Shown here piece after piece: positions 1 to 36,194 of a stretch of DNA of 38,828 nt. A model generated the notes under the pieces. The model made no database searches. It saw only the letters and a list, made by a program, of their open reading frames with translations, and was not told the DNA's origin. Each line of letters begins with the position of its first letter. Position 1 is the first letter of the stretch. The stretch comes from Anolis carolinensis (lineage: Eukaryota). The translations under genes and the position numbers were made by a program. The stretch spans positions 149,173 through 188,000 of the forward strand of contig NW_026943847.1 in assembly GCF_035594765.1 (NCBI RefSeq). The letters run 5' to 3'.

Positions 1-24
1 CCCCCCATCCCTCCCCCCACTCAC

Positions 25-64
<40 letters not shown>

Positions 65-912
65 CCCCCCCCCCCGAAAGGCCTCCTTCCTTCTTTCCTT
101 CCTTCCTTCTGACAGGAAAGAGCGCCGCCCGGCCCCTCCCCCCCCAGTGTTCCCGCCTCTCGCTGCACTTCCGCCCTCAAGAAACATGTCGGCCGCGGGC
201 AGGAGACCCACAGAGGGGCGGGGCCCGAGACGGAGAGGCAGGCGGAGAGACACGCCCCTTCTTTCCTTTCCTCCCAACGCCCAATGAGAATCCGCCTTCC
301 TCTCAGAGCGGCGTCATCTCGGCGCAGAGTCCCACTCACCCCCTCCTCTCTCTCTCTCTCTCTCTCCGAAAGGCCTCCTTCCTTCTTTCCTTCCCTCGAA
401 GGCGCTGGTAGAAAAGAGCGCCGCCCGGCCCCGCCCACCCCGAGTCTCCCCGCCTCTCGCAGGACTTCCGCCCTCAAGAAACATGGCGGCCGCGGGCAGG
501 ATTCCCACAGAGGGGCGGGGCCCGAGAGAAGCGGAGAGACAGAAGCGGACAGACACGCCCCTTCTTTCCTTCCTCTCAACGCCCAGCGTCCGCCAATGAG
601 AATCCGCCTTCCTCTCTGGCGTCATCGGTCTCCGGGCAGGAACGCCCCCGCCCTGCCCCCCGCTCCGCCCTTCTGCCGTTAACGGTCACTAAGGGATCGG
701 CCAATCGGAATCGGCCTCGTCTCTCCGCGTCACCCGTCTCCAGGGAGACTCGCCGGCGCCTTCCCGCCTCTGGGTCGGACTCTCCTGGCCCGCTCCTCAT
801 CGCAGGCAGGCTGCTGAAGCGGAGAAGGGGGGGCCAGGCCAAGGAGCGGGAGGCACCTCTGCGTGGACGGGTCATGTCGGGGAAGCAGCCTCCTCTCTCC
901 GCCTCCGCTCGG
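1..912. promoter_or_regulatory. GC/CpG-rich island 1, probable bidirectional promoter, paralog of island 2
   Basis: CpG-dense. Contains ETS-type ACTTCCG (167, 464), YY1-like AAACATGGCGGC (479-490), GC boxes, CCAAT (281, 593, 701) and GCGTCA CRE half-sites (619, 727). Minus-strand GTGAGT donors at 19-24 and 334-339; plus-strand donor G|GTGAG at 911/912. Segment 590-780 aligns with 11652-11835. Confidence 0.75.
17..625. repeat. Imperfect ~300-bp tandem duplication of the promoter/first-exon segment
   Basis: Shared anchors: ccgaaaggcctccttccttctttccttcc (74/366), acttccgccctcaagaaacatg (167/464), ccaatgagaatccgccttcctctc (281/593). Both copies carry a (CT)n tract. Confidence 0.9.
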
Positions 913-1012
913 TGAGGTTTCCCCGCTTCATAATGTGTCGCTTGGGAACCTGAAATGTAGGTCTGACGGGACTGGCAGTTTCCTCTTCCCTCATTATAAC
1001 GACTGCCATATA

Positions 1013-1049
1013 CAGTAGAGTCTCACTTATCCAACACTCGCTTATCCAA
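1013..1049 (+). mobile_element. Orphan left TIR of a Tigger/pogo-type DNA transposon
   Basis: TA followed by cagtagagtctcacttatccaaca matches the reverse complement of the terminus at 22686-22709 (22/24). Confidence 0.7.
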
Positions 1050-1051
1050 TC

Positions 1052-1773
1052 ACAGTCTGGCTTCAGGCCTGGAGACGGCTCTGGTCGCCTTGGTGGGTGA
1101 CCTCCGCAGGGAGCTGGACAGGGGAGTGTGACCCTGCTGGTTCTCTTGGACATCTCAGCGGCTTTCGAGACCATCGACCATGGTCTCCTTCTGGGACGTC
1201 TCTCCGGGATGGGCCTTGGGGGTTCCGCTCTGCAGTGGCTCCAGTCCTTCCTGGAGGGCCGTTCCCAGATGGTGAAGCTGGGGGACACCTGCTCGGACCC
1301 CTGGCCTTTGACCTGTGGGGTCCTGCAAGGTTCCATTCTGTCCCCCATGCTTTTTAACATCTACATGAAACCGCTGGGAGAGGTCATCCGGAGTATTGGA
1401 GTGCGGTGCCATCTCTACGCGGATGACACCCAACTCTACTACTCCTTTCCACCAAACTCCAAGGAAGCCCCTCGGATATTGGATCAGTGCCTGGCCGCTG
1501 TGTTGGCCTGGATGAGGGTGAACAAACTGAGACTTAATTCCGACAAGACAGAGGTCCTCCAGGTCAGTCGTAAGTCTGATCGGGGTATTGGGTGGCAACC
1601 TGTGCTGGACGGGGTCGCACTCCCCCTGAAGGCGCAGGTCCATTGCAGCTTGGGGGTCCTCCTGGATTCGGGGCTGACGCTTGAGGCCCAGGTGTCGGCC
1701 GTGGCCGGGAGGACCTTTGCACAACTAAAACTTGTGCGCCAGCTGCGACCGTACCTCGAGAAGTCTGATCTGA
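1052..1773 (+). mobile_element. L2-clade LINE reverse transcriptase fragment
   Basis: ORF 1128..1790 has LLDISAAFETIDH, GVLQGSILSPMLFNIY, YADDTQLY and LRLNSDKTEVL. Confidence 0.92.
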
Positions 1774-1775
1774 CT

Positions 1776-2490
1776 TTCAGTAGGCAGTGAGTTCCATAGT
1801 CGGGGGGCCACAGCAGAAAAGGCCCTCTCCCTTGTACTCACAAGGCGGGCCTGGGATATAGACAGTGGTGATAAAAGGGCCTCCCCGGATGATCGTAAAG
1901 ATCGGGCAGGTTTATGGAGGGAGATACGGTCACGGAGGTAGGTGGGTCCCAAACCGTTTAGGGCTTTATAGATGATGGTCTGCACCTTGAATTGGGACCG
2001 GAAGATGAACGGCAGCCAGTGGAGCTCCTTAAACAAGGGAGTGGATCTCTCCCTGTAACTTGCCCCCGTTATTAATCTGGCAGCCGAGCGTTGGACCAGT
2101 TGTAATTTCCGAGCCATCTTCAAGGGAAGCCCCACGTAGAGCGCATTACAGTAGTCCAGTCTAGAGGTAACTAAGGCATGCACCACCGTGGTCAAGTCAG
2201 ACTTCACGAGGTATGGTCGCAGTTGGCGCACAGGTTTGAGTTGTGCAAAGGCCCTCCCGGCCACCGCCGACACCTGAGCCTCAAGCGTCAACACTGAGTC
2301 CAGGAGGACCCCCAAACTACGGACCTGTGATTTCAGGGGGAGTGCAACCCCGTCCAGCACAGGCTGCCACCCAATACCCCGATCCGACGAGCGACTGACC
2401 AGGAGGGCCTCTGTCTTGTCAGGATTGATCCTCAGCTTGTTCCTCCTCATCCAGTCTGCCACAGCGGCCAGGCACTGGTTCAGCATCCGA
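1776..2490 (-). mobile_element. L2-clade LINE C-terminal fragment, inverted
   Basis: ORF 1725..2588 has NPDKTEALL, SRLDYCNALYVGLP, LHWLP and RAFSAVAPRLWNSLP. Confidence 0.92.
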
Positions 2491-2750
2491 GGTTCAGCAT
2501 TTAAGGCCTTGAGAGGGGTATATATTTTAAACTTGTGTCCTTTGTATGATGTTTTATGGACTTTAATATGTATTTTATAGAAAGGCAATTTTAATGTAGA
2601 TCTTTTATAGTTAGTTTTATATATATATATCTTTGTTGAATTTTGACAATGTTTGTGTTTTTAAAATTGTGTTGTAACCTCCCTCGAATTGCAAGGAGAG
2701 GCAAGTAAGAAATAAAATTATTATTATTATCATTATTATTGTTATTGTTA
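2491..2750 (+). mobile_element. L2 3' UTR and tail
   Basis: AT-rich UTR, terminal stem-loop (cctccctcg...ggagagg), then aaataaa and a (TTA)n tail. Confidence 0.7.
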
Positions 2751-2825
2751 TATGTACGCATTGAGTTGCTAGAGGTGTAACTTCAGATTGATTTGTAGTT
2801 TTCTTTCTTGCAATAGGACTGAATA
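2751..2825 (+). pseudogene. Remnant of a deleted paralog of gene B (intron sequence)
   Basis: Aligns with 15851-15926 in the gene B intron after exon 3 (atatgta.gcattg.gttgcta...ttcag.ttgatttg.agttttctttcttgcaatag.actgaata). Confidence 0.7.
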
Positions 2826-3089
2826 CTGGCAGGGTTTGGGGCGATTGACTTTGCAATATGGGAGTCGTGGTTCATGCCCATCCAGAGAGCACCAAACCCA
2901 CCCGACTACAGTTCTCGACCAACATGGCCCACAAACCCAACATGGCCGACTGAATACTGGCAGGGTTTGGGGTGACTGCCATTTGCATATGGGAGTTGTA
3001 GTTCACCCTTAGCCAGAGAGCCTTGAACCCAGTCGACAAATAACCCAGCCAACAAATGCTTTTTTCAACTCACCTGGGCACCACTAGGT
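2817..3089 (+). repeat. ~131-bp tandem repeat (about 1.7 copies), possibly the end of a non-autonomous Helitron
   Basis: gactgaatactggcagggtttgggg occurs at 2817 and 2948, and the segment ends near CTAG (3084-3087). The family call is from recall only. Confidence 0.5.
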
Positions 3090-3419
3090 TTACACAAATT
3101 ACAATTTTGGTATTTAAAAACAATATTTTATACAAATAATAATTTTGGTACATTTTTTTTAAAAAGGACTATTTAACAAATATAAAGGGAACAAGGACAC
3201 ACACCTTGCACAATAAGAACAAAACTAACTGACATCAAATGCTAATTTACAAAACTCACTCACTATATGATTTGTATCTCTATTTACTCTTATTTCCTTT
3301 CAATGCGGTTCTATACTTCATCAATGTAGTTAATATGTCCATCTCAACGGATTCATGAATCTTCATCAGTCGTTGTAGTCATTTTTTGTCTTCCATTCTC
3401 TGCAGTTGGGGAGGGATAC

Positions 3420-4760
3420 TGTGTGTCCTAATGGACCCTTTGCCAAAGGTGGGGATTGAACAGTCTCATATCCAGAAAGGGTTTCACTCTACACAGGGAT
3501 AAGTACACACAAAGCAAGGCTGATGGTCTCATGTTCCAGGGCTCTCTCGGTATAAAGTCTGAGGTTTATTAAACAAACACAAGACAAGCCAAGACCATAT
3601 TATTTTATAGGAAAACTAAAGTCTTCAGTCCAGCTAAAACAGTGGTTCCCAACCTGGGGTCCATGGACCACCAGTGGTCCGCAAGAACTAAAATAGGGTT
3701 CACAGCCTCACAGTTACTACAGCATTACAATGAGAGTGACTGGTCTCGCGAAACCCTCTTATAGTCCTGAGGATTATTAAATATGGTTTTCTGTGGGCGA
3801 GCAGATGACGACTAACTGGATGGCATATCAGGAATGAGAGCTGACGTGGTCTATCCAATGCAATTTTCTGAATCATCACTCCAAATAACCAAACCAAATC
3901 TAAAGTTGACCAAAAACTGATTTATAACCCTTCTGGTACTAATTTTGGAGAGTGGTCCCTTGTCAAATGATCCCTAGTTTAAAAAAAGGTTGGGAGCCAC
4001 TGAGCTAAAATAATTGGAGCAACACAGTTGAAGGAACAATGAATACAAGTGCAGGTCAAGAGTCCAATTATTGCGGACAAGTTGAGTACTGCAGATACAG
4101 GTCAGGAGTGAAAATTAACAAGAACCAAGGTCACAGTCCCAACAGTCACATGCCAGGAGTTCATTCAGCTGAGTTGATAAAACAACAACCAAGAAATCAA
4201 GAGTACAAACCGAATTTAGAGTCCCAAAGTCAAGCCAGAAAGTCAGGGATACAAACAAAGTCCAAGTCCATATACGAAACCTAGACGTCAGTCCAGAATT
4301 TAGAGTCAATGATTCAGGATACAACAAAGTCCAGAAAAGGGTTAAAAGTACAGGGCTAGCACCCAAAATTTCAACCAAGGGACTCAGGACAGATCACAGT
4401 ACATACAGTACACATGCATGGGAAACAATTGATGCCATTGAATGCAGAAGAGCCAAGAAATAAGGCAGGAGTATGAAGATACGACGTTATCTGCAACCAA
4501 AGAGCTATTCTTTTTCAGAACCCTTTAATCCAGAGATCTCTGCTGCTGCTCATTTCAGCAAACCTTCACACATCATCCTAGAAGCCTGCGATGGGTCTCT
4601 TTGCGGAGGAGGTTAGGTGAACCCCTTCCAAGCTTGCTGCCATTCTGAGTGACACCTGCTCCCAGTAGCCGTCAACCAAGGCCACACAAACTCCGATTCA
4701 TGGTGGAGAGAGAGCAAGGTGCTGGCCTTCCTCTTTCCTTCCAATGTGTTTTTATAGATT
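3420..4760 (-). mobile_element. Possible LTR-like element in the gene A 3' region
   Basis: Strong strand bias with repeated gtcc/agtc words, minus-strand AATAAA at 3565-3570, and absent from the paralogous gene C 3' region. Termini and TSD were not identified. Confidence 0.35.
3640..4002. mobile_element. Non-autonomous hAT (Charlie-like) MITE
   Basis: TIRs cagtggttcccaacct / aggttgggagccactg; perfect 8-bp TSD agctaaaa (3632-3639, 4003-4010). Confidence 0.93.
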
Positions 4761-4857
4761 CGGAAACTCAAAGGCCCGTCTCCTCTAGAGGTACATGAGT
4801 TCTGTGATGTCTACTGTATGCTGAACTTTTTCTAAAGCTCTGTTCCTATTCCGTGCA

Positions 4858-6006
4858 TTAAGGTGACTTCTCCTCTGTGTGGGTCCTTTGATGGGAACAT
4901 AGACTGCCACTCTGACTGAGGCTTTCTCCACATTCTATGCATTTATATGGCTTCTCCCCTGTGTGCTTCCTTTGATGGGAACGTAGACTGTAACTCCGAC
5001 TGAAGCTTTCTCCACATTCTATGCATTTATAGGGCTTCTCCCCTGTGTGCTTCCTTTGATGGGAACGTAGACTGCCACTGTGACTGAAGTTTTCTCCACA
5101 TTCCATGCATTTATATGGCTTCTCCCCTGTGTGGGTCCTTTGATGGGAACGTAGACTGTCACTCCGACTGAAGCTTTCTCCACATTCTATGCATTTATAG
5201 GGTTTCTCCCCTGTGTGGGTCCTTTGATGGGAACGTAATTTGTCACTCCGACTGAAGCTCTTTCCACATTCCACACATTCATATGGCTTCTCCCCTATGT
5301 GAGTCCTTTGATGGGAACGTAGATTGCCACTGTGACTGAAGCTCTTTCCGCATTCTACGCATTTATGTGGCTTCTCCCCTGTGTGGGTCTTTTGATGGGA
5401 ACGTAGACTGCCACTTTGACTGAAGCTTTCTCCACATTCTATGCATTTATATGGCTTCTCCCCTGTGTGCTTCCTTTGATGGGAACGTAGACTGTCACTC
5501 CGACTGAAATTTTCTCCACATTCTATGCATTTATAGGGCTTCTCCCCTGTGTGCTTCCTTTGATGGGAACGTAGACTGCCACTGTGACTGAAGTTTTCTC
5601 CACATTCCATGCATTTAGAGGGCTTCTCCCCTGTGTGGGTCCTTTGATGGGAACATAGACTGCCACTGTGACTGAAGTTTTCTCCACATTCCATGCATTT
5701 ATATGGCTTCTCCCCTGTGTGGGTCCTTTGATGGGAACGTAGACTGTCACTCCGACTGAAGCTTTCTCCACATTCTATGCATTTATAGGGTTTCTCCCCT
5801 GTGTGGGTCCTTTGATGGGAACGTAATTTGTCACTCCGACTGAAGCTCTTTCCACATTCCACACATTCATATGGCTTCTCCCCTGTGTGGGTCCGTTCAT
5901 GTACAGTAAGAGAACTTTTGCAATCAAATTGTTTCCCACATTCCAGACACTGATGTAACTTCTCCCCTGTGTGTGATCTAGGATAGGGAGGTAGAGGACT
6001 TGCCAT
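4858..6006 (-). CDS. Gene A: C2H2 zinc-finger-only protein, 382 aa, 13 fingers
   Basis: 13 tandem CxxC..H...H fingers with TGEKP-type linkers. ATG at 6006 in a good Kozak context (agaATGG), with an in-frame TAA 9 codons upstream. A decayed 14th finger (CTE*EQSFRKSSAYSRHHRTH) follows the stop. Confidence 0.85.
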
Positions 6007-6297
6007 TCTTTTATATTTATAATTCAAATATTATGCCAGGCGTTCACAGATATAACCTCCTGAGCAGCACAGTCTTTGTATTGCTGTAGCCTTCTGCTCG
6101 CTTTCCCAAGCCTCTCTTTTTTCAGCACAATCTTATTTCCTCCTCTTAACTGCATAGGTTTGTAGCTTGAAATATATTTTTACTACTTATTTTTTCTTGT
6201 TGTCATTGCTGTGTATTTTGAAGTCCCTTTAGACTTAGAGCACTCCTTGGGCAAAGCTCTCACAACGTATTCTTTGCAGAGCTTTTTCAGAAGTTAC
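6007..6297 (-). other. 5' non-coding part of the gene A terminal exon (acceptor at 6298/6297)
   Basis: ttcccctcatttgtctgcag|GTAAC. The acceptor and flanks 5960-6460 align with gene C 34920-35430. Confidence 0.65.
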
Positions 6298-6579
6298 CTG
6301 CAGACAAATGAGGGGAAAATCTCTTCAGGAGTTGAACAGAGAAAGATCTCATGGAACATGAAAAACAAGTCTCGTGCTGTAACAAACCCAGGGGAAGAGG
6401 GTGAGCCCATTGCCTGGTGAGAAATGCTTTAACACTTGCCTAACAACAAACTATCCCTCCTCAGGTCCAAAGGGGACAGTGCGCAAAGATACTCTGCACA
6501 AAATAAAATCCAACCCTACCGATTAAAATCCAACAATGCAGCAAAGCTGAAGGCATAACAGGCTGTGAACTGTGAACAT

Positions 6580-7650
6580 TTATTTTTGGCATCTTTCGCT
6601 GAATTAAATTATTCTCAATGTCTTGTAGAGATATGTGGTCAGCCTTATATAAATTAATGTAATAATGTTTTAAAGCCTGTTGAATATTGATATCATCTAT
6701 TAATATTTTATCCTCATGTTGTATCTTAACAGTAAGTCCCCTTCAGGGTAGAGAAAGGCGGGGTAGAAATGTCATAAATAAATAAATACATAAATAAAGA
6801 ATTGACAATTACATTTTTGGGCTTTCTTTCCTCAACGTATATGCTAACTATTTCCTTGGTTTGTTAGCTGATTCAAAATATTTTTTTTTGCATTCTTTAT
6901 TTTAGTTTCCAATTCATTAACTAGTAACACAATAATTGCTTTTGTAGGAGTTTTATCTGAGTTAGAATGTTTGAATTCAAAGGATTTTTCTTTAACTCCT
7001 CTTCTTTTTTTAATATCATCTGAAATTATCTGAAAATATTTCTGTCTATTCTTTCTCATTTCAGTGTTGCATTTTATAAAGTATCCTCTAATATAAGCTG
7101 TACTGGCATCCCATACTGTTTGAATATCTGTAACTTGATTTAAATTAAATTCCAAATATTCTTTCAGTTTTTCTTTCAAATTCTCAATTACGTCCTCCTT
7201 TTGCAGTAGTGATTCATTCAGCTGCCATCTAAGTGTTTTTAATAATAATAATAATAATAACTTTATTTTTATACCCGCCCCATCTCCCCGAAGGAACTCG
7301 GGGCGGCTTACATGGGGCCTTGCCCGATAAAACAATCAAATATCAAAACACAGCAATAAAACAGTTATCCAATAAAAACATCAATTACAGTAAAAACAAT
7401 CGTTAAATCAACATAAAACATACAATATTAACACTGGAGTCTAATTCATAGAACCCAGGCAAAGCGCAACATGTGCCGAAATGGGCCGAAATGGGGAAGG
7501 GCCATTTTTTACTTTCTTTTTAATTACTAGAGTCACTGGATTATGATCTGAGATAGTTTTGGGTAGGAGTTCTGTCTTTTGAACAGGTTTTGAGTTTGGC
7601 AGATATCCATATCTTTTCCATTCTAGAGAAAGTATTTTGTCTTTCTGAAA
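6580..7650 (-). mobile_element. L1/Tx1-like LINE ORF2 fragment (end of endonuclease plus linker), interrupted by L2 tails
   Basis: ISDHNPV near 7530-7555; WQLNESLL...VWDASTAYIRG in ORF 6844..7335. L2-type tails at about 6733-6797 (+) and 7241-7490 (-). Confidence 0.75.
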
Positions 7651-7658
7651 ATTGTGTA

Positions 7659-8160
7659 CTGTATATACTCGAGTAAAAGCCGAGGCACCTAATTTAACAC
7701 AAAAAACTGGGAAAAACTATTGACTCAAGTATAAGACGGGGTGGGAAATGCAGCAGGTACTGGTACATTTCAAAATAAAAATAGATAGCAATAAAATTAG
7801 ATTAATGGAGGCATCAGAAGGTTAAATGTTTTTGAATATTTACATACAACTGCAATTTAAGACTTTCCAACTGTGATTAAATTATTATTCTAAGCTTCTT
7901 CAATGTAAATGTGCTTATATATTCTTCCAATAATCACCATAGTTTATTTTAACTATACATTTTGGGGGAAATGCAGTGTGTATACGAATAAAGAAAAGTG
8001 GGAAAGACGAGTGCCGAGGAGAGGAAGGCGTGCGCTGCACGGGAAAGGAGGAGAGGCTTATACTTGCGTATATACAGTATATTCTTTGCATCCCCCTCCC
8101 CGAGAGTTTGTCTTTCTTTGGTGAAATCACTCCATTCCAATCTCCCAAAAGGCACCCGTT
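7659..8160 (+). mobile_element. Tc1/mariner (Tc2-like) non-autonomous element, left part
   Basis: TA followed by a ctgtatatactcgagtaaaagccg terminus, with an internal repeat gactcaagtataagacg. No right TIR seen. Confidence 0.55.
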
Positions 8161-8164
8161 TTCA

Positions 8165-8600
8165 TAATGGAGGTCTGTTGGAAACTAGGCACGTGGGGTT
8201 TATATATCTGTGTAATGACAAGGGTGGGAGAAAGAACTCTTGTCTGCCCGAGGCAAGTGTGAATGTTGCAGCTGGCCACCTTGATTGACACTGAATTTCA
8301 TTTTTAAAGCCTGCCTGCTTTCTGCCTGGGGGAATCCTTTGTTGGGAGGTGTTAGCTGACCCATTGTTTCATGCCTGCAATTCTCATTTTTTGAGTGTTG
8401 ATTTTTATTTACTGATTTTAGAGTCTTTTTTCATACTGGTAGCCAGATTGTGTTCAATTTCATGGTTTTCTCCTTTCTGTTGAAATTGTCCACATGCTTG
8501 TGGATTTCAATGGCTTTTCTGTGTAGTCTGACATGGTAGTTGTCAGAGTAATCCAACATTTCTGTGTTCTCAAATAATATACTATGTTGGTTCATCAAGT
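8165..8600 (-). mobile_element. Penelope-like element fragment (end of GIY-YIG endonuclease plus UTR)
   Basis: HSILFENTEMLD...YHVRLHRKAIEIHKHVDNFNRKE...LNTIWLPV in ORF 8431..8967. Confidence 0.75.
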
Positions 8601-8709
8601 GTTCGGCTTCCCCTTGGCAACATCTTTGTAGATGGCTGATTCTCCCACACCAGAAGAGACTCGGGCTCTCATCTGGCTCGTCATACCTCATAGAGCTTGT
8701 TGAGTTTAG

Positions 8710-9160
8710 GATCGCAGTGCTCGAACCGGTTTGTAAACGGAGATGCAGACTATTTGCAGAATCGCGTCCCTGTTTACAAACCGGCTCGAGCACTGCGATC
8801 TGCGGAGGAGGCCCTGCTCTCAGTCCCACCCCCGTCTCAAGCACGGCTGGTGGGAACGAGAAAGGGGGCCTTCTCCGTGCTCCTCCCCTCCTCTGGAAAT
8901 CCCTCCCAAAAGAACGAAAAACTGCCCCCTCCCTCCTTGCCTTCAAACTAAAAACACATCTATGCACTCTGGCCTACTGAGAGGAGGAAGACTAATACGA
9001 CTCGATATGTATCATTGTCTAGATATATTAAATCCTGTCTAGATACTGGAATTGATCTCAATTGGACACCATCTGACCACTTAATAAGGTCTGAGCTGTT
9101 TGAAGTGTTTATTCTGTGTACATTTACACTATGTGACTATATTTGCTAGGCTTGTCAAGT
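8710..9160 (+). mobile_element. L2 3' fragment with a short inverted duplication at its 5' junction
   Basis: YLQNRV..YKPARALRSAEEALLSVP..RLVGTRKGAFSV. Segment 8710-8738 is the reverse complement of 8772-8800 (28/29). Confidence 0.8.
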
Positions 9161-9256
9161 TTTATTTTTGAGGAGAGTCCTCCAAGTTCTGTCAGTCATC
9201 CAGATTTGACTGCAGGCATGTTTCAAAATCCAAAAAGATGTCCCATTGGTGAGGAA

Positions 9257-9565
9257 GAGGAGGGGGAAAGGCTTCCTTTCTGTTGCTCTGGAGACTAAGG
9301 GACAACGGAGCCAGGAGGTCAAACGGCAAGAAAAGGGATTCCTCCCAAACACGAGGAAGGACTTCCTGAGGGCAAGAAGAAGAGCTGTTCAGCAGGGGAA
9401 CTCTCTGCCTCAGAGTCTGGTGGGAGCTCCTTCTTTGGAGGATTTAGTCAGAGGCTGGATGGAGATCTGTCGGGAGGATTTGGATTGTGTTTCCCTGCCT
9501 GGCAGAAGGTGGTGGGGCTGGGTGGCCCTTGGGGTCTCTCCCAACCCTCTGGCTTCGGGGATTCC
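9257..9565 (+). mobile_element. CR1 LINE 3' end, diverged
   Basis: RQEKGFLPNTRKDFLR..RAVQQGNSLPQSLVGAPSLE plus a CR1-type UTR, homologous to 32340-32645. Confidence 0.8.
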
Positions 9566-10185: not shown

Positions 10186-10291
10186 CTTTTGGCACCTGCT
10201 GGTCCTTCTCCACTTCGGCCTGGAGCTTCTTCTGCACAGCCTCCGCCAATCCCTCCCTGCAGACGCCCTTCTTTCCGCAGGACAGCCCTCT
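10186..10291 (-). other. Candidate non-coding 5' UTR exon of gene A
   Basis: Acceptor ccttccctcggcag| and donor AAAG|gtgagg; purine-rich; lies between island 2 and the gene A terminal exon. Confidence 0.4.
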
Positions 10292-23179: not shown

Positions 23180-25209
23180 TAGATAACGGGGAGAAGAGCC
23201 ATGTATGCACCAAATACAGGAAGCATTTGGGACACAACGGGTGCCTTCATCGACACCAGCAAGCCCACAGAGAAGATGGAGGTTCTGCCAGAGAAAGGCC
23301 CAACAAATGCATTGTATGTGGGCAATGTTTTACCCAAAATGTGGCACTTGTCCTTCACAAGACACTTGATGTTGGGAAAAGCCATCTTAAAGGGAAAGTA
23401 TCTGCAAAATGTGTGGTGAAACACAAGAAATTTCACACAGGTCAGGAACAATACAGATGCCAAGAGTGTGGGAAGTGTTTTGCTGAAAGTTCAGCCTTGT
23501 TGAGCCACAAAAGAGTCCACACCAGGGAGAAGCCATACAAATGTCAGGAGTGTGGGAAATGTTCTGCTTCCCATTCAGACTTGTTGAAGCACAAAAGACT
23601 CCACACAGGAGAGAAGCCATACCAATGCCAGGAGTGTGGGAAATGTTTTACTTGCAGTTCAACCTTGGTGAGCCACAAAAGACTCCACACAGGAGAGAAG
23701 CCATACCAATGCCAGGAGTGTGGGAAATGTTTTACTTGCAGTTCAACCTTGGTGAGCCACAAAAGACTCCACACAGGAGAGAAGCCACACCAATGTCAGG
23801 AGTGTGGGAAATGTTTTGCTGAAAGTTCAGCCTTGTTGAGCCACAAAAGAGTCCACACCAGGGAGAAGCCATACAAATGTGAGGAGTGTGGGAAATGTTC
23901 TGTTTCCCATTCAGACTTGTTGAAGCACAAAAGACTCCACACAGGAGAGAAGCCATACCAGTGCCAGGAGTGTGGGAAATGTTTTACTTGCAGTTCAACC
24001 TTGGTGAGCCACAAAAGACTCCACACAGGAGAGAAGCCACACCAATGCCAGGAGTGTGGGAAATGTTTTGCTGAAAGTTCAGCCTTGTTGAGCCACAAAA
24101 GAGTCCACACCAGGGAGAAGCCATACAAATGTGAGGAGTGTGGGAAATGTTCTGTTTCCCATTCAGACTTGTTGAAGCACAAAAGACTCCACACAGGAGA
24201 GAAGCCATACCAATGCCAGGAGTGTGGGAAATGTTTTACTTGCAGTTCAACCTTGGTGAGCCACAAAAGACTCCACACAGGAGAGAAGCCACACCAATGC
24301 CAGGAGTGTGGGAAATGTTTTGCTGAAAGTTCAGCCTTGTTGAGCCACAAAAGAGTCCACACCAGGGAGAAGCCATACAAATGTGAGGAGTGTGGGAAAT
24401 GTTCTGTTTCCCATTCAGACTTGTTGAAGCACAAAAGACTCCACACAGGAGAGAAGCCATACCAGTGCCAGGAGTGTGGGAAATGTTTTACTTGCAGTTC
24501 AACCTTGGTGAGCCACAAAAGACTCCACACAGGAGAGAAGCCACACCAATGTCAGGAGTGTGGGAAATGTTTTGCTGAAAGTTCAGCCTTGTTGAGCCAC
24601 AAAAGAGTCCACACCAGGGAGAAGCCATACAAATGTGAGGAGTGTGGGAAATGTTCTGTTTCCCATTCAGACTTGTTGAAGCACAAAAGACTCCACACAG
24701 GAGAGAAGCCATACCAGTGCCAGGAGTGTGGGAAATGTTTTACTTGCAGTTCAACCTTGGTGAGCCACAAAAGACTCCACACAGGAGAGAAGCCACACCA
24801 ATGCCAGGAGTGTGGGAAATGTTTTGCTGAAAGTTCAGCCTTGTTGAGCCACAAAAGAGTCCACACAGGAGAGAAGCCATACCAATGCCAGGAGTGTGGG
24901 AAATGTTTTGCTTACAGTTCAAACTTGTTGAGCCACAAAAGACTCCACACAGGAGAGAAGCCATACCAATGCCAGGAGTGTGGGAAATGTTTTGCTTTCA
25001 GTTCACACTTGGTGAGCCACAAAAGACTCCACACAGGAGAGAAGCCATACCAATGCCAGGAGTGTGGGAAATGTTTTGCTGTCAGTTCACACTTGGCGAG
25101 GCACAAAAGAAGCCACACAGGAGAGAAGCCATATAAATGCCATGAATGTGGAAAATGTTTTACTCAGAGTTCAGCCCTTAACCAGCACCAGAGAACACAT
25201 ACCGGCTAA
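23180..25209 (+). CDS. Gene B exon 6: 21 C2H2 fingers preceded by degenerate fingers; spliced SCAN-KRAB-ZNF product about 911 aa
   Basis: Acceptor ttcttcttcacag|TA is phase 1, matching the KRAB donor. Exons sum to 390+118+71+127+2030 = 2736 nt with no internal stop; TAA at 25207-25209. Confidence 0.92.
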
Positions 25210-26096: not shown

Positions 26097-26160
26097 CAGT
26101 GGCTGTCAACCAGTGGTCCACGGACTACCAGTGGTTCGCAAGAACTAAAATACGGTCTGC
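26097..26160 (+). mobile_element. Truncated 5' end of the same hAT family as 3640..4002
   Basis: cagtggctgtcaacc...ccagtggttcgcaagaactaaaata aligns with 3640-3700. Confidence 0.7.
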
Positions 26161-28010
26161 CTTCTAAGCTTCCCTTCCTTTGCTTTCTTTTCTCTTGCCC
26201 TTCCTTCCCCTTTCTTCCTTCTTTCCTTCTATCCTTGTCTTCTTGTCCCTTCCTTTGCCTTCTTTTCTCTTGCCCTTCATTCCTTCCTTTTTCTCTTCCC
26301 TTCCCATCCTGCCCTTTGCTGCCTTTTCTCTTCTTCTTCCATCCTTTTTCTCTTCCCTCCCTTTTCTCCCCTTTGCCTTTTCTCTTGCCCTTCCTTCCTT
26401 TTTTCTTCCCTTCACTTCCCTTCCTTTTCCTTCTTTTCTCTTGCCCTTCCTTCCTTTTTCTCTTCTCTCCTCTTCCCTTCCTTTGCCTTCTTTTCTCTTG
26501 CCTTCTTTCCTTGCTTTTTCTTGCTCTTCGCTTGCCTTCCCTTCCTTTGCCCATCATATGTTATGGACTGGAGTAGAGTACAATATATGTCTCATTTGAT
26601 GCCTTATGAACTTGAATGCAAACTATAATTGTTTTTCTTAATCTGTTTATCCTATTATATTATATTATTGATGTTCTCTGATTGTTGTTTATGTGAGTTT
26701 AATATGTCGTAAGCCTCTTTGGGTCCAGTGAGGGAGAAAAGCAGGATATAAATAAAGATTCATCATCATCATCATCATCATTATTATTTTCTCTTGCCAT
26801 TCTTTACTTCCCTTTTTCTCTTCCCTTCCATCCCTTTGCCCTCTTTTCCCTTGCCCTTCCTTCCTTCTTTCCTTGCTTTACCTTCCCTTCCCTTCTTTTC
26901 TCTTGTCCTTCCTTCCTTTTTCTCTTCTCTTCCCATATTTTCCTTTGCCTTATTTTCTCTTCCCCTTCCTTCCTTCCCTTCCCTTGTCTTCTTTTCTCTT
27001 GCCCTTCCTTCCTTTTTCTCTTCTCTTCCCATATTTTCCTTTGCCTTATTTTCTCTTCCCCTTCCTTCCTTCCCTTCCTTTGTCTTCTTTTCTCTTGTCC
27101 TTCCTTCCTTTTTCTCTTCTCTTCCCATATTTTCCTTTGCCTTATTTTCTCTTCCCCTTCCTTCCTTCCTTCCCTTCCTTTGTCTTCTTTTCTCTTGTCC
27201 TTCCTTCCTTTTTCTCTTCTCTTCCCATATATTCCTTTGCCTTCTTTTCTCTTCCCCTTCCTTCCTTCCCTTCCTTTGCCTTCTTTTCTCTTGCCCTTCC
27301 TTCCTTTTTCTCTTCTCTTCCCATATTTTCCTTTGCCTTATTTTCTCTTCCCCTTCCTTCCTTCTCTTCCTTTGTCTTCTTTTCTCTTGTCCTTCCTTTC
27401 TTTTTCTCTTCTCTTCCCATATTTTCCTTTGCCTTCTTTTCTCTTCCCCTTCCTTCCTTCCCTTCCTTTGCCTTCTTTTCTCTTGCCCTTCCTTCCTTTT
27501 TCTCTTCTCTTCCCATATTTTCCTTTGCCTTATTTTCTCTTCCCCTTCCTTCCTTCCCTTCCCTTCCCTTCCTTTGTCTTCTTTTCTCTTGCCCTTCCTT
27601 CCTTTTTCTCTTCTCTTCCCATATTTTCCTTTGCCTTATTTTCTCTTCCTCTTCCTTCCTTCCCTTCCCTTGTCTTCTTTTCTCTTGCCCTTCCTTCCTT
27701 TTTCTCTTCTCTTCCCATATTTTCCTTTGCCTTATTTTCTCTTCCCCTTCCTTCCTTCCCTTCCCTTGTCTTCTTTTCTCTTGCCCTTCCTTCCTTTTTC
27801 TCTTCTCTTCCCATATTTTCCTTTGCCTTATTTTCTCTTCCTCTTCCTTCCTTCCCTTCCTTTGTCTTCTTTTCTCTTGTCCTTCCTTCCTTTTTCTCTT
27901 CTCTTCCCATATTTTCCTTTGCCTTATTTTCTCTTCCCCTTCCTTCCTTCCCTTCCCTTGTCTTCTTTTCTCTTGCCCTTCCTTCCTTTTTCTCTTCTCT
28001 TCCCATCCTT
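26161..28010. repeat. Polypyrimidine tract including a 96-bp minisatellite (about 12 copies, 26900-28010), split by an L2 tail (26555-26788)
   Basis: cccatattttcctttgcc recurs about every 96 bp, and the antisense ORFs repeat every 32 aa. Confidence 0.92.
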
Positions 28011-29710: not shown

Positions 29711-29714
29711 ATCT

Positions 29715-32170
29715 GTTTTTAAAAATAATTTATATTCAAAGACAAGAAAGAAAAACAAATGCATATTTATACAAATTACAAATACATTTATTATTATTTT
29801 TTTAAAAAAAAATCGTACATCCTTTTACAGCAGCCACATTATATTCAGTACAATCTACAGTACGTTAACATTTGGCATCTACTGTTATTTTCACGCTTAT
29901 ACAGATTTCTTACCCTCCCCCAAGTCACTTTTTTTATTTATCATCTGTCCAAAATTCCTTTTCATTCCCTCTTGTGGAGGTAATTCTGTCTTTCTTTTTG
30001 AATCCTCTTCCAATACATTTTCTCCAGACATCATCACAACCACTTTGTTTCTAAATCCCTCTCCACGTCAACCTATCATTTCTTCCCAGTTTCCATACTT
30101 CCTTATACCATTCTTCTATCTCTATATTTATTTCCCTTTTCCAATTCCTTGCTATAAGCAGTCTTGCAATTGTTAATGCGTTTGTTATCGCATCTTTGTC
30201 CTCTTTTTCCAACTGTTTATTATTATATAATGAGAATAAAGCCATGCTAAGACTTCTTTCTATTTGAATGTTCATTGTGTCTATCTCTCTTAATACTTTT
30301 CCCCAGAAATTATTTATATATTGACACTGCCACCACATATGTATGTATGTTCCCGATTCTTGGCATCCTCTCCAGCAATTGTTTGAGTAGTTTTTATTTA
30401 TATTTCCTATTCTTATGGGTGTGAGGTACCATTTCCATATCAACTAAATAATAATTTTCTTTAACACATATGGATATATTTTTCAAGTGTCTTTGTCCCC
30501 ATAATTGTAACCCCTCTGTTTCATTGATTTTCATTCCTATATCTTCTTTCCAAATCTTCTTGAAGGTGTTATTCTTTACTTTTCCTTTGTTTTTTTCAAT
30601 TAATATTTTAGAAATTTTACTGGATATTCCTTTCAAATTTTTATGTTCCTAATCTTTTCTTTCTTCATTCCAACCTTTGGCCAATCCCCTATTTTATCTA
30701 AGTTTTTCCCCTTAATTTTTTTATCCATCATATATATTTTTTATTTTTTGAAAATGTCTTTTCCATTATAATTGGGGTTATTATTGAGCCATCTGTTATT
30801 AACTTTCTCCTGTATTTGTTCCATATTTCTACTGCATTACTCAACATTGGGTTCCCAGTTTACCTAATTTTTTTTCTCATAAACTATTTTAAAACATATT
30901 CCGAATTTCTTCTTCCACTTTTCCTGAATCCATTATTAACTATTCTACATCCTCCTTTTCATCATTCCTTGTATAACCAATCTCAGTCTGTTTGCTTTAT
31001 AATATTTTTTCATATGAGGAAGCGCTAATCCTTCTTCTTTTTGAGATCTGTTCTGTAGCTTGTTTCGTCAATTTCTTTGACTGCCATTACAGTATTTATC
31101 ATTTGTCCAAATAAGTCTCCTTTGGGGTGGAGAAAGGTGGGGTAGAAATGTTGCAAAGAAATAATGTATTCAACTCTTCTTCTGTAATCTGAAATGGCGT
31201 TATAAATATAAGGTATATGTAAGTATAAAGTTTATCCTCAGAAGCATTTTCATTTTTAGTATTGCTGTCTTTCCAAACCAAGATAGATGTGTATTAATTT
31301 TTTTTGAACTATTTTCCTCAATGCTACTACATTTACCTCTTCTATTTCTTTTAAGTCCTTTGTTATACTTACTCCCAGGTATATTAATTTGTTCTTGATT
31401 CTAATTCCCGTATGGCTCTGTTCTATAAAGTCTTTTTCTTTTTTCTTTGTATAATATAAACCCGTTGTTTTCCCAAATATCTTTTAATGATCCTCTCTCC
31501 TATCCATTTGACCTACCCAGATATTTAATCAATAACAATGTGTCATCAGCAAATAAGCTCACCTTCTGCTTTTCCTTTATTCCTACACCTTCTACATTCT
31601 TACCTTTTTGGATGGCGTTTGCAAATAATTCTATCACCATAGCAAATAAAATTGTTCTAATCATCCTTTTATTCTACTTCCCATTCCAAATTAATTCATA
31701 ATCTCACTTATTATCTGCCATGCTACACAATCAAAGCATTAAATATATCTAATGCTAGTATCCCCACTTTTAACTTCCTCTCTTGAGACACACATATTTT
31801 GTTTCATACTCTCCCTATCAAACGTAACATTTGTCTTCCTTTTACAAACCCAGATTGATCTTTCAATATATACTTGTACATGAATTTATTCATTCTATTG
31901 GCTATTATAACTGATAAAAACTTTGCATCCTGATTAACTAATGATGTAGGCCTGTAAGACCCTGGGTCTGTTAAATCTTTTCATATTAATATTATGAATG
32001 ACTTCCTCCATGATTCTGGTATTTTCTCCACAATCATTATTCCAATATACAATTCTAATATTGTTGCAGTCAGTATTTCTCTAATACTTTTGTAATATTC
32101 TGTTCCCAATCCGTCCAGAACTGGAGCTTTCCTGGCTTTATTTCTGTCCTCTTAATAGGTTGTTCTGATA
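29715..32170 (-). mobile_element. Decayed L1/Tx1-like LINE ORF2 (RT to CCHC) and 3' UTR
   Basis: KAPVLDGLGTEYYK, PGSYRPTSLVNQDAK, LFADDTLL (about 31535-31560) and WYLTP..CWRGCQESGTYIHMWWQC. Confidence 0.88.
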
Positions 32171-32337
32171 ATTCTTAATATAAATTACAATTTTGGCATT
32201 TTTAAGGAAAGGACTACATAAGAAACATTAAAGCTTCAAGGACACATAACCTACATAAAAAGAACAAAACTAATAGAAAAACCAATCTACAAAACTCTTG
32301 CTGCATGCTGATTTTTATCTCGATTTACTCACTTTAA

Positions 32338-32950
32338 ATCATAGAATCATTGAATCCCAGAGTTGGAAGAGACCTCATGGGCCATCCACTCAAATCCCCT
32401 GCCAAGAAGCAGGAAATCGCATTCAAAGCACCCTCGACAGATGGTCATCCAGCCTCTGCCTCAAAGCCTCCAAAGAAGGAGCCTCCACCACAGTCCGAGG
32501 GAGAGAGTTCCACTGCCGAACAGCCCTTCTCACCGTGAGGAAGTTCTTCCTGATGTTCAGGTGGAATCTCCTTTCCTGTAGTTTGAAGCCATTGTTCCAT
32601 TGCGTCCTAGTCTCCAGGGCAGCAGAAAACAAGCTTGCTCCCTCCTCCCTATGACTTCACGTATTTGTACATGGCTATCATGTCTCCTCTCAGCCTTCTC
32701 TTCTGCAGGCTAAACATGCCCAGGTCTTTAAGCCGCTCCCCATGGGGCTTGTTCTCCAGACCCTTGATCATTTTAGTTGCCCTCCTCTGGACACATTCCA
32801 GCTTGTCAACGTCTCCTTTCAATTGCAGTGCCCAGAATTAGACACAGTGTGATTCCAGGTAAAGTGGTCTGACCAAGGCAGAATAGAGGGGGAGCATGAC
32901 TTCCCTGGATCTAGACACTCTGCCCCTATTTATGCAGGCCAAAATCCCAT
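32338..32950 (-). mobile_element. CR1 3' end
   Basis: NNGFKLQERRFHLNIRKNFLTVRRAVRQWNSLPRTVVEAPSLE and an ATTCTATG-type tail. Confidence 0.9.
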
Positions 32951-32954
32951 AAGG

Positions 32955-33222
32955 AGGAGGGAGCAAGCTTATTGTCTGCTGCTCTGCAAACTAGGATGCA
33001 GAATAATGGCTTCAAAATACAGGAAAGGGGATTCCACCTGAACATAAGGAAGAAGTTCCTCATTGTGAAAGCAGTTCAGCTGTGGAACCTTCTTTGGAGG
33101 CTTTTAAGCAGAGGCTGGATGGCCATCTGTCCGGGGTGCTTTGAATGCAATTTCCTGCTTCTTGGCAGGGGGTTGGACTAGATGGCCCATGAGGTCTCTT
33201 CCAACTCTATGGTTATATGATT
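32955..33222 (+). mobile_element. CR1 3' end, inverted relative to its neighbour
   Basis: NNGFKIQERGFHLNIRKKFLIVKAV; UTR complementary to 32340-32480. Confidence 0.9.
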
Positions 33223-33311
33223 TCTTCCCCTTCCACTTCCTGTTCATGTCCCTTTTGAGTCATAGTCGTTAGAAGTTCTTTGGACAACCATTCTGCTTCT
33301 TTGCACTTGTC

Positions 33312-34958
33312 CTATTTATGTGGCTTCTCTCCTGTGTGAATCTTTTGATGGGTGTGTAGATTTCCACTCTGACTGAAGCTCTTTCCACATTCCATGCATT
33401 TATGTGGCTTCTCTCCTGTGTGAGTCCTTTGATGGGTGCGTAGATTTCCACTCTCACTGAAGCTCTTTCCACATTCCATGCATTTATGTGGCTTCTCTCC
33501 TGTGTGCATCCTTTGATGGGTGCGTAGATTTCCACTCTGACTGAAGCTCTTTCCACATTCCATGCATGTATGTGGCTTCTCTCCTGTGTGCATCCTTTGA
33601 TGGATACGCAGATCTCCACTCTGACTGAAGCTCTTTCCACATTCCATGCATGTATGCGGCTTCTCCCCTGTGTGAGTCCTTTGATGGGTGCGTAGATCTC
33701 CACTCTGACTGAAGCTCTTTCCACATTCCATGCATGTATGTGGCTTCTCTCCTGTGTGCATCCTTTGATGGATACGCAGATGTCCACTCTCACTGAAGCT
33801 CTTTCCACATTCCATGCATTTATGTGGCTTCTCCCCTGTGTGAGTCCTTTGATGGATACGCAGATGTCCACTCACACTGAAGTTCTTTCCACATTCCATG
33901 CATGTATGTGGCTTCTCCCCTGTGTGAGTCCTTTGATGGATACGCAGATGTCCACTCTCACTGAATCTCTTTCCACATTCCATGCATGTATGTGGCTTCT
34001 CTCCTGTGTGCATCCTTTGATGGGTGCGTAGATTTCCACTCTTACTGAATCTCTTTCCACATTCCATGCATGTATGTGGCTTCTCTCCTGTGTGCATCCT
34101 TTGATGGATACGCAGATGTCCACTCTCACTGAATCTCTTTCCACATTCCACACATTTATATGGCTTCTCCCCTTTGTGAGTCCTTTGATGGGTGCGTAGA
34201 TCTCCACTCCGACTGAAGCTCTTTCCACATTCCATGCATGTATGTGGTCTCTCCCCTGTGTGAGTCCTTTGATGGATACGCAGATGTCCACTCTGACTGA
34301 AGCTCTTTCCACATTCCATGCATTTATGTGGCTTCTCTCCTGTGTGCATCCTTTGATGGATACGCAGATCTCCACTCCGACTGAAGCTCTTTCCACATTC
34401 CATGCATGTATGTGGCTTCTCTCCTGTGTGTATCCTTTGATGGATACGCAGATGTCCACTCTCACTGAAGCTCTTTCCACATTCCATGCATGTATGTGGC
34501 TTCTCTCCTGTGTGCATCCTTTGATGGATACGCAGATGTCCACTCTTACTGAAGCTCTTTCCACATTCCATGCATATATGTGGCTTCTCCCCTGTGTGAA
34601 TCCTTTGATGGGTGCGTAGATTTCCACTCTGACTGAAGCTCTTTCCACATTCCATGCATGTATGTGGCTTCTCCCCTGTGTGAATCCTTTGATGGGTGCG
34701 TAGATTTCCACTCTGACTGAAGCTCTTTCCACATTCCATGCATGTATGTGGCGTCTCTCCTGTGTGCATCCTTTGATGGATACGCAGATGTCCACTGTCA
34801 CTGAAGCTCTTTCCACATTCCACACATTTATATGACTTCTCTCCTGTGTGAGTTCGTTGATGTTTAGCAAGAGAACTTCTTTCAATGAAACATTTCCCAC
34901 AGTCCTTACAATTATGTCGCTTCTCCCCTGTGTGTGATTTTGACAATGAAGTTTCCAT
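33312..34958 (-). CDS. Gene C: C2H2 zinc-finger-only protein, 548 aa, 19 fingers, paralog of gene A
   Basis: [13 protein letters not shown] followed by 19 fingers. Kozak aaaATGG with an in-frame TAA two codons upstream. Acceptor tcttattcatctcgcag|GTAAC at 35241/35240 is homologous to that of gene A; 3' homology block 32180-32335 matches 3095-3295. Confidence 0.88.
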
Positions 34959-36194
34959 TTTTTAAACATTTATTATTCTAATATTATGCCTGAAGTTCAC
35001 AGATATGGACTCCTGAATAGGACATTTCCTCTTCCCAGTCTCTGTATTGCTGTAGCCTTATTTTCTCTTTACCAACCCCTCTTTTTACAGCACAGTCCTC
35101 CCTTTCCTTACATTTAAAGGCATGTAGCTTGAAATATAATTTCTCCAATTTATTTCTTGTTCTTGTTAATCCTGCGTACTTTCCTTTCAGACGTAAGGCA
35201 AACGGCAATGTTTTCTTCATAAGGTTCGTTTAGAGGTTACCTGCGAGATGAATAAGAGGAAAATCTTATTAGGAGCAGAGTACAGAAAGATCTCATTGAA
35301 CATGAAGAACAATAGCCTAGTGCTGTAGCAATCACAGGGGAAGAGGGGAGAAAGACTGGCCCAACTGGTAAGAGCCCGTTGCCTGCTGAGAAGCACTTTA
35401 ACACTTGCCCAACAAAGAACAATCCCTGCAAAGGGGATAGCGGCCTAAGATCCTGTGTCTAATCCAACCTTGGTAAAGGAAGGCCTCTAATAATATGGTC
35501 AACACGGAAAGGGCCTAACGATGCAAAGCATTTCCTACCTAGATCCCGCTTCTTCACATCTCCACTCAAAACCTGAGTGGCCATCTGTATGGACAGACTA
35601 TCCCAAGTGATCAGTCTTGGGAGAAAAATACTTCCTCCAACTTGGGGGAGAGATATTTTCCTGATCCTCTCTTTCCCTGCAGCGTGATCCCTGCCCCACG
35701 TTTCTAAAGCAAGGCGCCTGGAGACACTGAGAGCACATTAGGCCACAAAGTTCCTTGACATACTGCATTCTTACAAAACCTATACCACAAAGGTATGTAA
35801 CTTCAGCCAGAGCCAAGGCACTCAGCCTAGCAGCAGTACATGAGAGAAGGCGGTATAGAGGAGACAGATGGATAGACCCCCAGGGTGAGTGGGAATCCTG
35901 CTGCCCTCCAGATCCTTCTGCACTCCAACAGCACCCTTGGGTGGGAGACATCATGATTCCTGCCCAGTTCTGCTCAGTTCAGTCCATTTTAGAAAGGACA
36001 TTGGCAAACTGCAGCGGATTCACAGAAAGGCAACAAGGACAGGAAGACATTACATTGTAAATGGAGGAAAAATAAAGGCAAAAGTTTGCTTTTGCACAGG
36101 AAACAATGTTGTGGCTCGAACTAAAATTATGTGCTAAAGATGATGCTTCTGACCGTCATCTGGGTAGTACCAGGTATAGCTTGTGCCACCAGAT

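Follow-up and report, generated by a model that had tools for sequence, protein, structure and literature searches.

Finger-only and SCAN-KRAB zinc-finger genes placed head to head around a putative bidirectional CpG-island promoter in an anole gene array

The usual description of a zinc-finger cluster is one of individual genes copied tandemly. In the window analyzed here (38,828 nucleotides of Anolis carolinensis, contig NW_026943847.1, positions 149,173 to 188,000), two families appear to alternate on opposite strands, namely finger-only genes (A and C) and a SCAN-KRAB-finger gene (B), which raises the question of whether such neighbours are held together by a common function or by a common promoter. 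The initial annotation had read the locus as a tandemly repeated head-to-head unit, a co-regulated pair of an effector-bearing and an effector-less gene such as a repressor with a competitor or partner. The explanation that we favour as a whole, with a probability of about 0.65, is that the window belongs to a zinc-finger gene array that is specific to anoles and expands through tandem segmental duplication. The homologies, the structure and splicing of B, the open and selected ORFs of A and C, and the recurring order elsewhere were observed directly. One CpG-island promoter would lie between the heads of each pair and probably fire both ways; since both genes would depend on it, the duplication of a working promoter would tend to copy both by hitch-hiking. 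After copying, the finger arrays would re-amplify internally and their contact residues would diverge, while the B partner would often be deleted and the island and finger-only gene would survive, as probably happened at island 1, where the B copy has shrunk to 111 bases. The A and C proteins would be translated from a common ATG just before finger 1 as effector-less, sequence-specific DNA binders, B would dimerise with other SCAN proteins, and the two types would bind different DNA with no need to interact.

Table 1. Coordinates of the features in the window, counted from its first letter.
Feature	Position	Strand	Remarks
Island 1	1..1040	none	CpG island, internally duplicated; putative promoter
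Two opposed LINE reverse-transcriptase fragments	1101..2490	none	Pfam RVT_1
B-like remnant	2715..2825	+	Homologue of B intron 3 (15816-15926)
A/C 3' block, gene A copy	3122..3289	-	78% to 32170-32330; probably 3' UTR or flank
Gene A ORF	4858..6006	-	382 aa, 13 C2H2 fingers, no effector domain
Gene A 5' leader, terminal exon	6007..6297	-	Two upstream ATGs; acceptor before 6297
Dead PFDN6 (prefoldin 6) first coding exon copy	10186..10249	-	Start codon lost, genomic donor kept
Island 2	11450..12050	none	CpG island between A and B, paralogue of island 1; putative bidirectional promoter
B SCAN exon from ATG	14920..15309	+	Pfam SCAN PF02023, E 6e-36; predicted acceptor before 14792
B linker exon	15645..15762	+	X1 joints, paralogues
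B linker exon	16241..16311	+	Joints 15762>16241 and 16311>18784 in X1; paralogues
B KRAB-A exon	18784..18910	+	Pfam KRAB PF01352, E 2e-15
B terminal exon	23180..25209	+	21 complete C2H2 fingers
Gene C 3' block	32170..32330	-	Matches 3122-3289
Gene C ORF	33312..34958	-	548 aa, 19 C2H2 fingers, no effector domain
Gene C leader and intron	34959..35520	-	Leader to acceptor 35240; five upstream ATGs

Gene B is intact and spliced, and encodes a SCAN domain, a KRAB domain and 21 fingers. Its SCAN exon is 100% identical to H9GT08_ANOCA and is linked to the KRAB exon by three GT-AG joints in contigs, with the joint 15309>15645 present in X1 and X12. The transcript data are contigs assembled from four runs; they cover introns as well and hold no information on depth, starts or strand. 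The last junction, 18910>23180, is predicted: it is in frame at phase 1, is the same in the paralogue XP_016854541.1, and is absent among the 15 of 151 joints listed. The resulting protein model is open over 912 aa, its finger array is made largely from a three-finger repeat, and the anole has many B paralogues, with SCAN exons at 74-100%. One candidate exon of 33 bases, in frame at 15918-15950, was rejected, since X1 splices 15762>16241 and the paralogues lack the exon; its acceptor falls inside the segment that matches the B-like remnant. In KRAB-A the DV is kept and MEE replaces MLE, and judged from this motif B may or may not recruit TRIM28. The lizard KRAB consensus likewise lacks the central MLE leucine (PMC3971581).

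Genes A and C had been described as having their acceptor, 5' leader and 3' block in common, and this was borne out at 77-82% identity with the intron included. The first exon base after the common acceptor is 6297 in A and 35240 in C. The leaders are 77% identical and the upstream introns 82% over 160 aligned bases, the gene C intron being homologous to 6298-6559 of A, while the 3' blocks align with a score of 139 against a shuffle maximum of 58. The promoter and upstream exons of gene C fall outside the window. The finger-only status of both genes also held: the leader of A is closed in all three frames, 9 of the 10 upstream indels between A and C break the frame by not being multiples of three, and Pfam found finger families only, so that neither array has a SCAN, KRAB or BTB domain in its frame. 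Both ORFs begin at a common ATG in a strong context (A at -3, G at +4).

Framework dN/dS was 0.31 for A and 0.33 for C, and the minimal substitution events, 37 in A and 32 in C, include no stop or Cys/His loss; a simple neutral model gives P values of about 0.005 and 0.008, respectively. By these measures, A and C are intact ORFs under purifying selection. Moreover, the synonymous distance within the arrays (0.18 and 0.14) was lower than that between the A and C arrays (0.31), and fingers A2-A13 cluster together with a support of 94/93, just under the starred threshold, which indicates that A has been under selection since it separated from C. One X1 contig spans 5972-6216 of gene A, and introns are covered as well. 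Residues 1-46 of A used as a query retrieved generic finger proteins, ordered by finger count. ZF03812_1 on GL343733, which equals A in length (1149 bp, 13 fingers), was rejected as A because its fingerprints differ, and the first-finger fingerprints of A and C did not place the window in the older assembly among the 20 matches listed per term.

The proposed paralogy of the two islands was confirmed: the core 588-776 aligns with 11650-11834 at 80.5% identity over 190 bases (E 2e-43; 83% is the figure for the core in the further alignments), with a local score of 264 against 76 for the best of 50 shuffles. The CpG call of island 2 covers 11501-12020. Island 1 in turn consists of two tandem copies (27-318 and 332-626, with 92% of aligned columns identical), which accounts for its two minus-strand donors. 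The candidate donors, which had been described as similarly placed, lie at 24 and 339 (minus) and 912 (plus) in island 1 and at 11463 (minus) and 12024 (plus) in island 2. All five have a GT and score 7.4-11.3 on a rough matrix, by which 60 plus-strand and 40 minus-strand sites of the window exceed 7; the surroundings of the two plus donors align at shuffle level only (score 31, against a maximum of 33 in 200 shuffles). The island donors are plausible splice sites. Island 1 carries motifs that we take to be CCAAT (three), ETS-like (two), YY1-like (one) and GC boxes. A CpG island with motifs typical of bidirectional promoters separates the divergent genes A and B, and we infer that gene A starts at island 2. 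Among metagenome contigs, the island core motif had 0 matches.

Within the window, the colinear duplicate runs island, B or B-like gene, finger-only gene, and the five paralogous segments have diverged alike (77-85% identity), which fits a single duplication. Segment 2751-2825 does match an intron of B, as had been noted, and belongs to a longer remnant that aligns with B intron 3 at 81% over 111 bases (score 139, shuffle maximum 57) and, without its microsatellite tail, at 64/75 (85%) ungapped. Apart from the island and 2715-2825, no B-derived sequence was found between 913 and 4850. The LINE fragments, which match each other in inverted orientation (1470-1774 versus 2492-2191), are inserted at the expected place of B-like exons 2-3. 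The window contains a single complete head-to-head pair, formed by A and B around island 2, and there is no third island in 35430-38828.

The head-to-head order of the unit that had been taken as repeated recurs on other scaffolds. Gene order was taken from published gene tables of an older A. carolinensis assembly (PMC3971581 supplement), which show the order of the genes only. On the eight scaffolds where both families occur, the upstream neighbour of every B-family gene (19/19) is a finger-only gene on the opposite strand. Shuffling the order gave P = 0.0005 for the head-to-head layout, with copies that are not independent, and P = 0.085 for three held-out scaffolds alone; neither GL343673 (0/8) nor GL343520 (1 unresolved) entered this test. 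The distance from B start to A start is 8914 in the window and 8859 and 8854 on GL343786, and head-to-head gaps on other scaffolds are between about 5.5 and 41 kb wide. In mixed arrays a B-family gene is never without an upstream finger-only gene, and B could depend on it. More than half of the finger-only models (20/39) have no head-to-head B-family gene, and GL343673 carries nine B-family genes in tandem with no finger-only partners. Tail-to-tail adjacency is as regular as head-to-head (17/17). Close B paralogues differ in their upstream partner; among the closest, the C-type downstream neighbour is kept in 3/3 testable cases and the A-type upstream neighbour in 2/4. The greater constancy of the tail-to-tail neighbour indicates that recent duplication blocks are not simply the head-to-head pair.

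The initial annotation missed a PFDN6 relic, a dead first-coding-exon copy situated between gene A and island 2. It is on the strand of A, at a distance of 1.2 kb from the island, and falls in the junction zone, which runs from the end of the A/C homology (6559) to island 2. PFDN6 was the top match among 177,635 PDB sequences (residues 1-21, 14/21 identical; E 0.13, weak alone), and the match begins at residue 1 and stops at a phase-1 donor that scores 11.1. The first coding exon of human PFDN6 is 64 bases long. One X1 contig runs on in frame beyond the donor position; no second PFDN6 exon was found in the window, and the 10186 exon had no match by Pfam or word-indexed search. This copy is a candidate 5' UTR exon of gene A. 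The real anole PFDN6 is located on GL343733, on the same strand as seven finger-only models. Human PFDN6 and WDR46 lie head to head, 55 bp apart, in the extended MHC class II region (PMC9679377); the anole unit has its PFDN6 first-exon copy near island 2, and WDR46 and PFDN6 are 3.7 Mb apart in A. sagrei. The exon copy hints that the promoter may have originated in an MHC-region housekeeping gene. It is conceivable, though on balance we think it rather unlikely, that the island family descends from the PFDN6 bidirectional promoter. An early duplication at the margin of the anole MHC would then have set this promoter down with a SCAN-KRAB gene on one side and a finger array on the other, the PFDN6 first exon would have turned into a 5' UTR exon in a new family of finger-only genes, and the module of two genes would have been amplified dozens of times.

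The recurring order could also reflect a co-adapted pair, in which the finger-only protein competes or partners with the SCAN-KRAB protein of the same promoter and selection keeps both together. Such a pair would agree with the 19/19 mixed-array genes that have an upstream finger-only gene and with the purifying selection on both ORFs. However, none of the fingers of A (0/13) or C (0/19) matches any B finger at three or more of the four contact positions, our proxy for binding, and there is no common dimerisation domain, as A and C lack SCAN and the main partners of SCAN proteins are other SCAN proteins (bioRxiv 10.1101/2025.03.03.638093). Partners are lost and switched, nine B-family genes have none, and with MEE in B and lizard KRABs lacking the MLE leucine, repression is not assured (PMC3971581). 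We hold a co-adapted pair to be improbable; the repressor with competitor or partner of the initial annotation was unsupported, the pairing being neither fixed nor obligate. It appears that A and B are passengers on a common promoter and do not form a pair of repressor and competitor. The capture of a promoter might instead have been a local event, in which the block consists of the PFDN6 5' end, the island, B and the terminal exon of gene C, A is a chimera of the junction, and PFDN6-derived sequence lies left of base 1. The exon copy with its genomic donor in the junction zone, the in-window order of the duplicate, and the two PFDN6 copies annotated in A. carolinensis all suit this version, but the head-to-head order was found 19 times on eight scaffolds in old and young members, which argues against a one-off event, and A-like genes lie 8.85 kb from B-like genes elsewhere. 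We strongly doubt a purely local event.

Gene A could also have a separate start, in its own intron or a LINE, with island 2 serving B only and the alternation arising from tail-to-tail duplication of B-C blocks with separate promoters. No A junction is among the 15 of 151 joints listed (contigs, 5910-23410), an absence that is no counter-evidence to the island start; the more constant tail-to-tail neighbour of close B paralogues and the head-to-head gaps of 18-41 kb would also fit a separate start. Yet the only other CpG island between 6297 and 11500 is a LINE-like patch at 8641-8960, minus-strand donors occur at matching places in both islands, and the exon at 10186 offers a strong donor on the strand of A, so we give a separate start little credence. 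Finally, A and C might be decaying KRAB-zinc-finger pseudogenes that lost their upstream exons, the leader being a dead spacer and the arrays open by inertia. The leader sits where a KRAB-ZNF gene has its spacer; one of the five upstream ATGs of C opens 78 codons, and the exact A and C proteins are absent from a collection of 15 billion proteins. Against decay stand the within-array selection signal after the A/C split, the conserved ATG context, and the lack of any SCAN, KRAB or other effector-domain match upstream on the minus strand in the window. The leader had no protein relative among 1.84 billion proteins (0 matches), among 240 retrieved proteins or by Pfam, a result that points the same way and is compatible with a decayed coding spacer. 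The pseudogene explanation is very improbable, and the duplication of a working, common promoter is the reading that we retain.

Vertebrate KRAB and SCAN clusters, which arise by gene and segment duplication, likewise form clustered lineage-specific C2H2 arrays with a conserved framework and fast-changing contact residues (PMC10547255 and PMC3971581), whereas here two families alternate strictly on opposite strands with one putative promoter island between the heads. This alternating head-to-head layout was not found in full-text searches of open-access papers, and the main text of PMC3971581 has 0 matches for "head-to-head" or "bidirectional". Bidirectional CpG-island promoters serve about 10% of human genes and are enriched for GABPA, NRF1, NF-Y and YY1 (PMC3082894). 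The anole locus is similar in its CpG island between divergent genes and in its CCAAT, ETS-like, YY1-like, NRF1-like and GC-box motifs, but the putative anole promoter is itself a serially duplicated family. With its SCAN, KRAB-A and long finger array, the B protein is no different from the squamate SCAN-KRAB (SKZFP/ZKSCAN-like) expansion described in bioRxiv 10.1101/2025.03.03.638093; only the pairing with finger-only genes differs. Lizard gene models include 723 finger-only and 240 SCAN-KRAB genes (PMC3971581), so both types are commonplace, and the component parts are individually ordinary.

If the explanation is true, a shared promoter can determine which genes are duplicated as one unit, and the expansions of an effector-bearing and an effector-less family can be coupled without functional partnership. 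The at least 19 promoter paralogues would form a natural series on how bidirectional promoters diverge once one partner dies, and the selected ORFs would be evidence that many of the 723 lizard finger-only models are real selected genes and not annotation fragments. If the capture of the PFDN6 promoter is true as well, a captured promoter, not a common function, would organise much of the anole zinc-finger repertoire.

Two colinear copies of one layout lie in the window, each ordered island, B or B-like sequence and finger-only gene (see table). Re-checking proved all coordinates named in the initial annotation correct, and the proposed paralogy of the two islands held, with cores 80.5% identical over 190 bases (score 264 vs 76 for shuffles). 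Island 1 has two minus-strand donors because it is itself a young doublet with 92% identity. The GT sites described as similarly placed donors in both islands are present but unremarkable: the plus-donor flanks matched no better than shuffles, and a rough donor matrix rates 100 sites in the window as highly. The match to a gene B intron was verified (score 139 vs 57 for shuffles), and region 913-4850 yielded no other B-derived piece. Genes A and C share their acceptor, leader and 3' block as had been reported, and the upstream intron is also common to both. Identities across the five paralogous segments ranged from 77% to 85%, the spread expected of one old duplication. In one contig of X3 (X1, X3, X5 and X12 are sequencing runs whose contigs were matched to part of the window) island-1a sequence is followed by the shared core, which weakly hints at a third island version or an allele without the doublet. 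The minisatellites between B and C are long and CT-rich, with a period of about 96 bases.

Coordinates of the features in the window
Feature	Position	Strand
Island 1 (CpG island, putative bidirectional promoter)	1-1040	
Doublet in island 1	27-626	
Remnant, homologue of gene B intron 3	2715-2825	
Gene A (finger-only C2H2 ORF)	4858-6006	-
Unusual residues in A fingers	4858-5900	
Donor motif after acceptor, A	6297	-
PFDN6 exon copy	10186-10249	-
Island 2 (CpG island, putative bidirectional promoter)	11450-12050	
Gene B (SCAN-KRAB-finger gene)	14920-25209	+
SCAN exon of B	14920-15309	
Micro-exon candidate, B intron 3	15918-15950	
369-base skip, B last intron	20203-20573	
Transposase, B last intron	20852-22270	
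Finger array of B	23498-24920	
Minisatellites	26150-26560, 26784-28013	
Gene C (finger-only C2H2 ORF)	33312-34958	-
Donor motif after acceptor, C	35240	-

The recurrence of the cassette was evaluated with AnoCar2.0 gene models (strand, position, fingerprints) from the available rows of Supplementary Table 2 of PMC3971581. Twelve scaffolds were picked by PFDN6 content or B-like fingerprints, arrangement playing no part; two held a single model each and eight held both families. By hand, two merged models were split, one stitched model was positioned by its SCAN end, and a model with a KRAB-B match spanning another gene was counted as finger-only. On the eight scaffolds, the nearest upstream neighbour of the B-family models (paralogues of gene B) was an opposite-strand finger-only model in 19/19 cases (order-shuffle P = 0.0005, the copies not being independent; P = 0.085 when restricted to the three scaffolds selected once the pattern had been noticed). 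The claim of a repeated head-to-head cassette is supported beyond the window; the window itself holds only one complete pair. Outside the shuffle test, GL343673 carries nine tandem, partnerless B-family genes (0/8) and GL343520 one unresolved case, giving 19/28 in total. These counts leave out GL343330, GL343316 and GL343434, with 30 of the 57 B-like fingerprint places listed; on GL343434 two B-family genes lie on the same strand 6 kb apart, likely a further exception. Head-to-head spacing was 8914 bases in the window vs 8859 and 8854 on GL343786, and tail-to-tail adjacency was equally regular (17/17). The closest B paralogues had a C-type downstream neighbour in 3/3 testable cases and an A-type upstream neighbour in 2/4. 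On GL343626, no B-family gene is listed in the interval between two finger-only genes (114983 and 146374) that point away from one another. Certain scaffolds may represent alleles of one another or of the window; because of this and the non-independence of the copies, the shuffle test shows co-duplication, not selection. No published description of the alternating arrangement was found in the mostly open-access literature.

The five coding exons of gene B gave an open 912-aa protein with SCAN, KRAB-A and 21 fingers. Its SCAN exon matched UniRef H9GT08_ANOCA at 100% identity and three further named records of Anolis carolinensis at 95-97%, which marks the window as green anole DNA. Among the 15 of 151 joints listed, the SCAN-to-KRAB exons were connected by three GT-AG joints in X1 contigs and one of these also in X12, the runs being tentatively taken as RNA. 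The KRAB domain retains DV, and MEE replaces MLE; according to Liu et al. (PMC3971581), the lizard consensus lacks the MLE leucine and KAP1 binding is not to be assumed. The finger array consists mostly of a three-finger unit of 252 bases, many copies of which are identical, and so reflects very recent internal amplification; published B paralogues are listed with 9-14 fingers. The last intron holds a broken pogo/Tigger-type transposase (HTH_Tnp_Tc5, DDE_1) and a segment skipped in X3 and X5, probably an insertion polymorphism. The 33-base in-frame micro-exon candidate was rejected because the single joint observed there passes over it; what the island-1 remnant conserves of it is the acceptor.

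Genes A (13 fingers) and C (19 fingers) encode no other domain. The leader of each gene is closed in every frame, with 9 of 10 leader indels breaking the frame, and the two ORFs open with a homologous ATG (A at -3, G at +4). With first fingers dropped, framework dN/dS among the fingers of each array was 0.31 (A) and 0.33 (C), contact positions changed as fast as silent sites or faster (2.9 and 1.2), and neither array showed a stop or Cys/His loss (P about 0.005 and 0.008, simple substitution model). Silent distance within the arrays was about half of that between them, and fingers A2-A13 formed a single group (69 columns, rough support). A and C are most plausibly genuine finger-only genes; the upstream ATGs (five in C, two in A) and the lack of a spliced A transcript among the 15 of 151 joints listed count against this. 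In both genes a good donor motif directly follows the acceptor (scores 8.9 in A and 7.4 in C), as in a recursive splice site; this may be chance. Most A fingers carry Glu after the second Cys-Gly, where Lys is usual, two have Cys at helix +5 and several have Lys before the last His; these residues may weaken backbone contacts.

Between A and island 2, the minus strand (10249-10186) encodes a match to residues 1-21 of prefoldin subunit 6 (14 identical, E 0.13, best among 177,635 PDB sequences). The start codon is lost, and the match ends at a donor among the strongest scored near A. A single X1 contig reads on in frame beyond this donor with letters that are not on the plus strand of the window, as expected of a spliced PFDN6 mRNA from residue 22 and the length of the exon. 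This segment is, by its sequence, a dead copy of the first coding exon of PFDN6 with its genomic donor kept; a second PFDN6 exon was not found in the window. Its D codon (10204-10202) differs in all four runs matched (10202 G>T). According to PMC9679377, two copies of PFDN6 are annotated in A. carolinensis; one lies on GL343733, on the same strand as seven A/C-type finger-only models, and human PFDN6 and WDR46 stand head to head with 55 bp between. The exon copy, the GL343733 linkage and the WDR46 pairing suggest a location at the MHC edge, and the island is possibly a captured PFDN6 promoter.

The initial annotation had read the duplicated unit as a co-regulated pair, for example a repressor with a competitor or partner. 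In the available rows, B-family genes in mixed arrays are never without a finger-only neighbour, the single point in favour of functional pairing. However, 20/39 finger-only models there, an undercount owing to merged models, have no head-to-head B-family gene, and only 111 bases of the B copy are left at island 1. A competitor role is not supported by the fingers, since none of A (0/13) or C (0/19) matches B at three of four contact positions; a partner role is not borne out either, as neither A nor C carries a SCAN domain. According to bioRxiv 2025.03.03.638093, the partners of SCAN proteins are chiefly other SCAN proteins. Functional pairing of the finger-only and SCAN-KRAB-finger genes is unsupported. 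We infer a common transcription start of A and B at the island; hitch-hiking on a common promoter explains the pattern with fewer assumptions than a functional pair.
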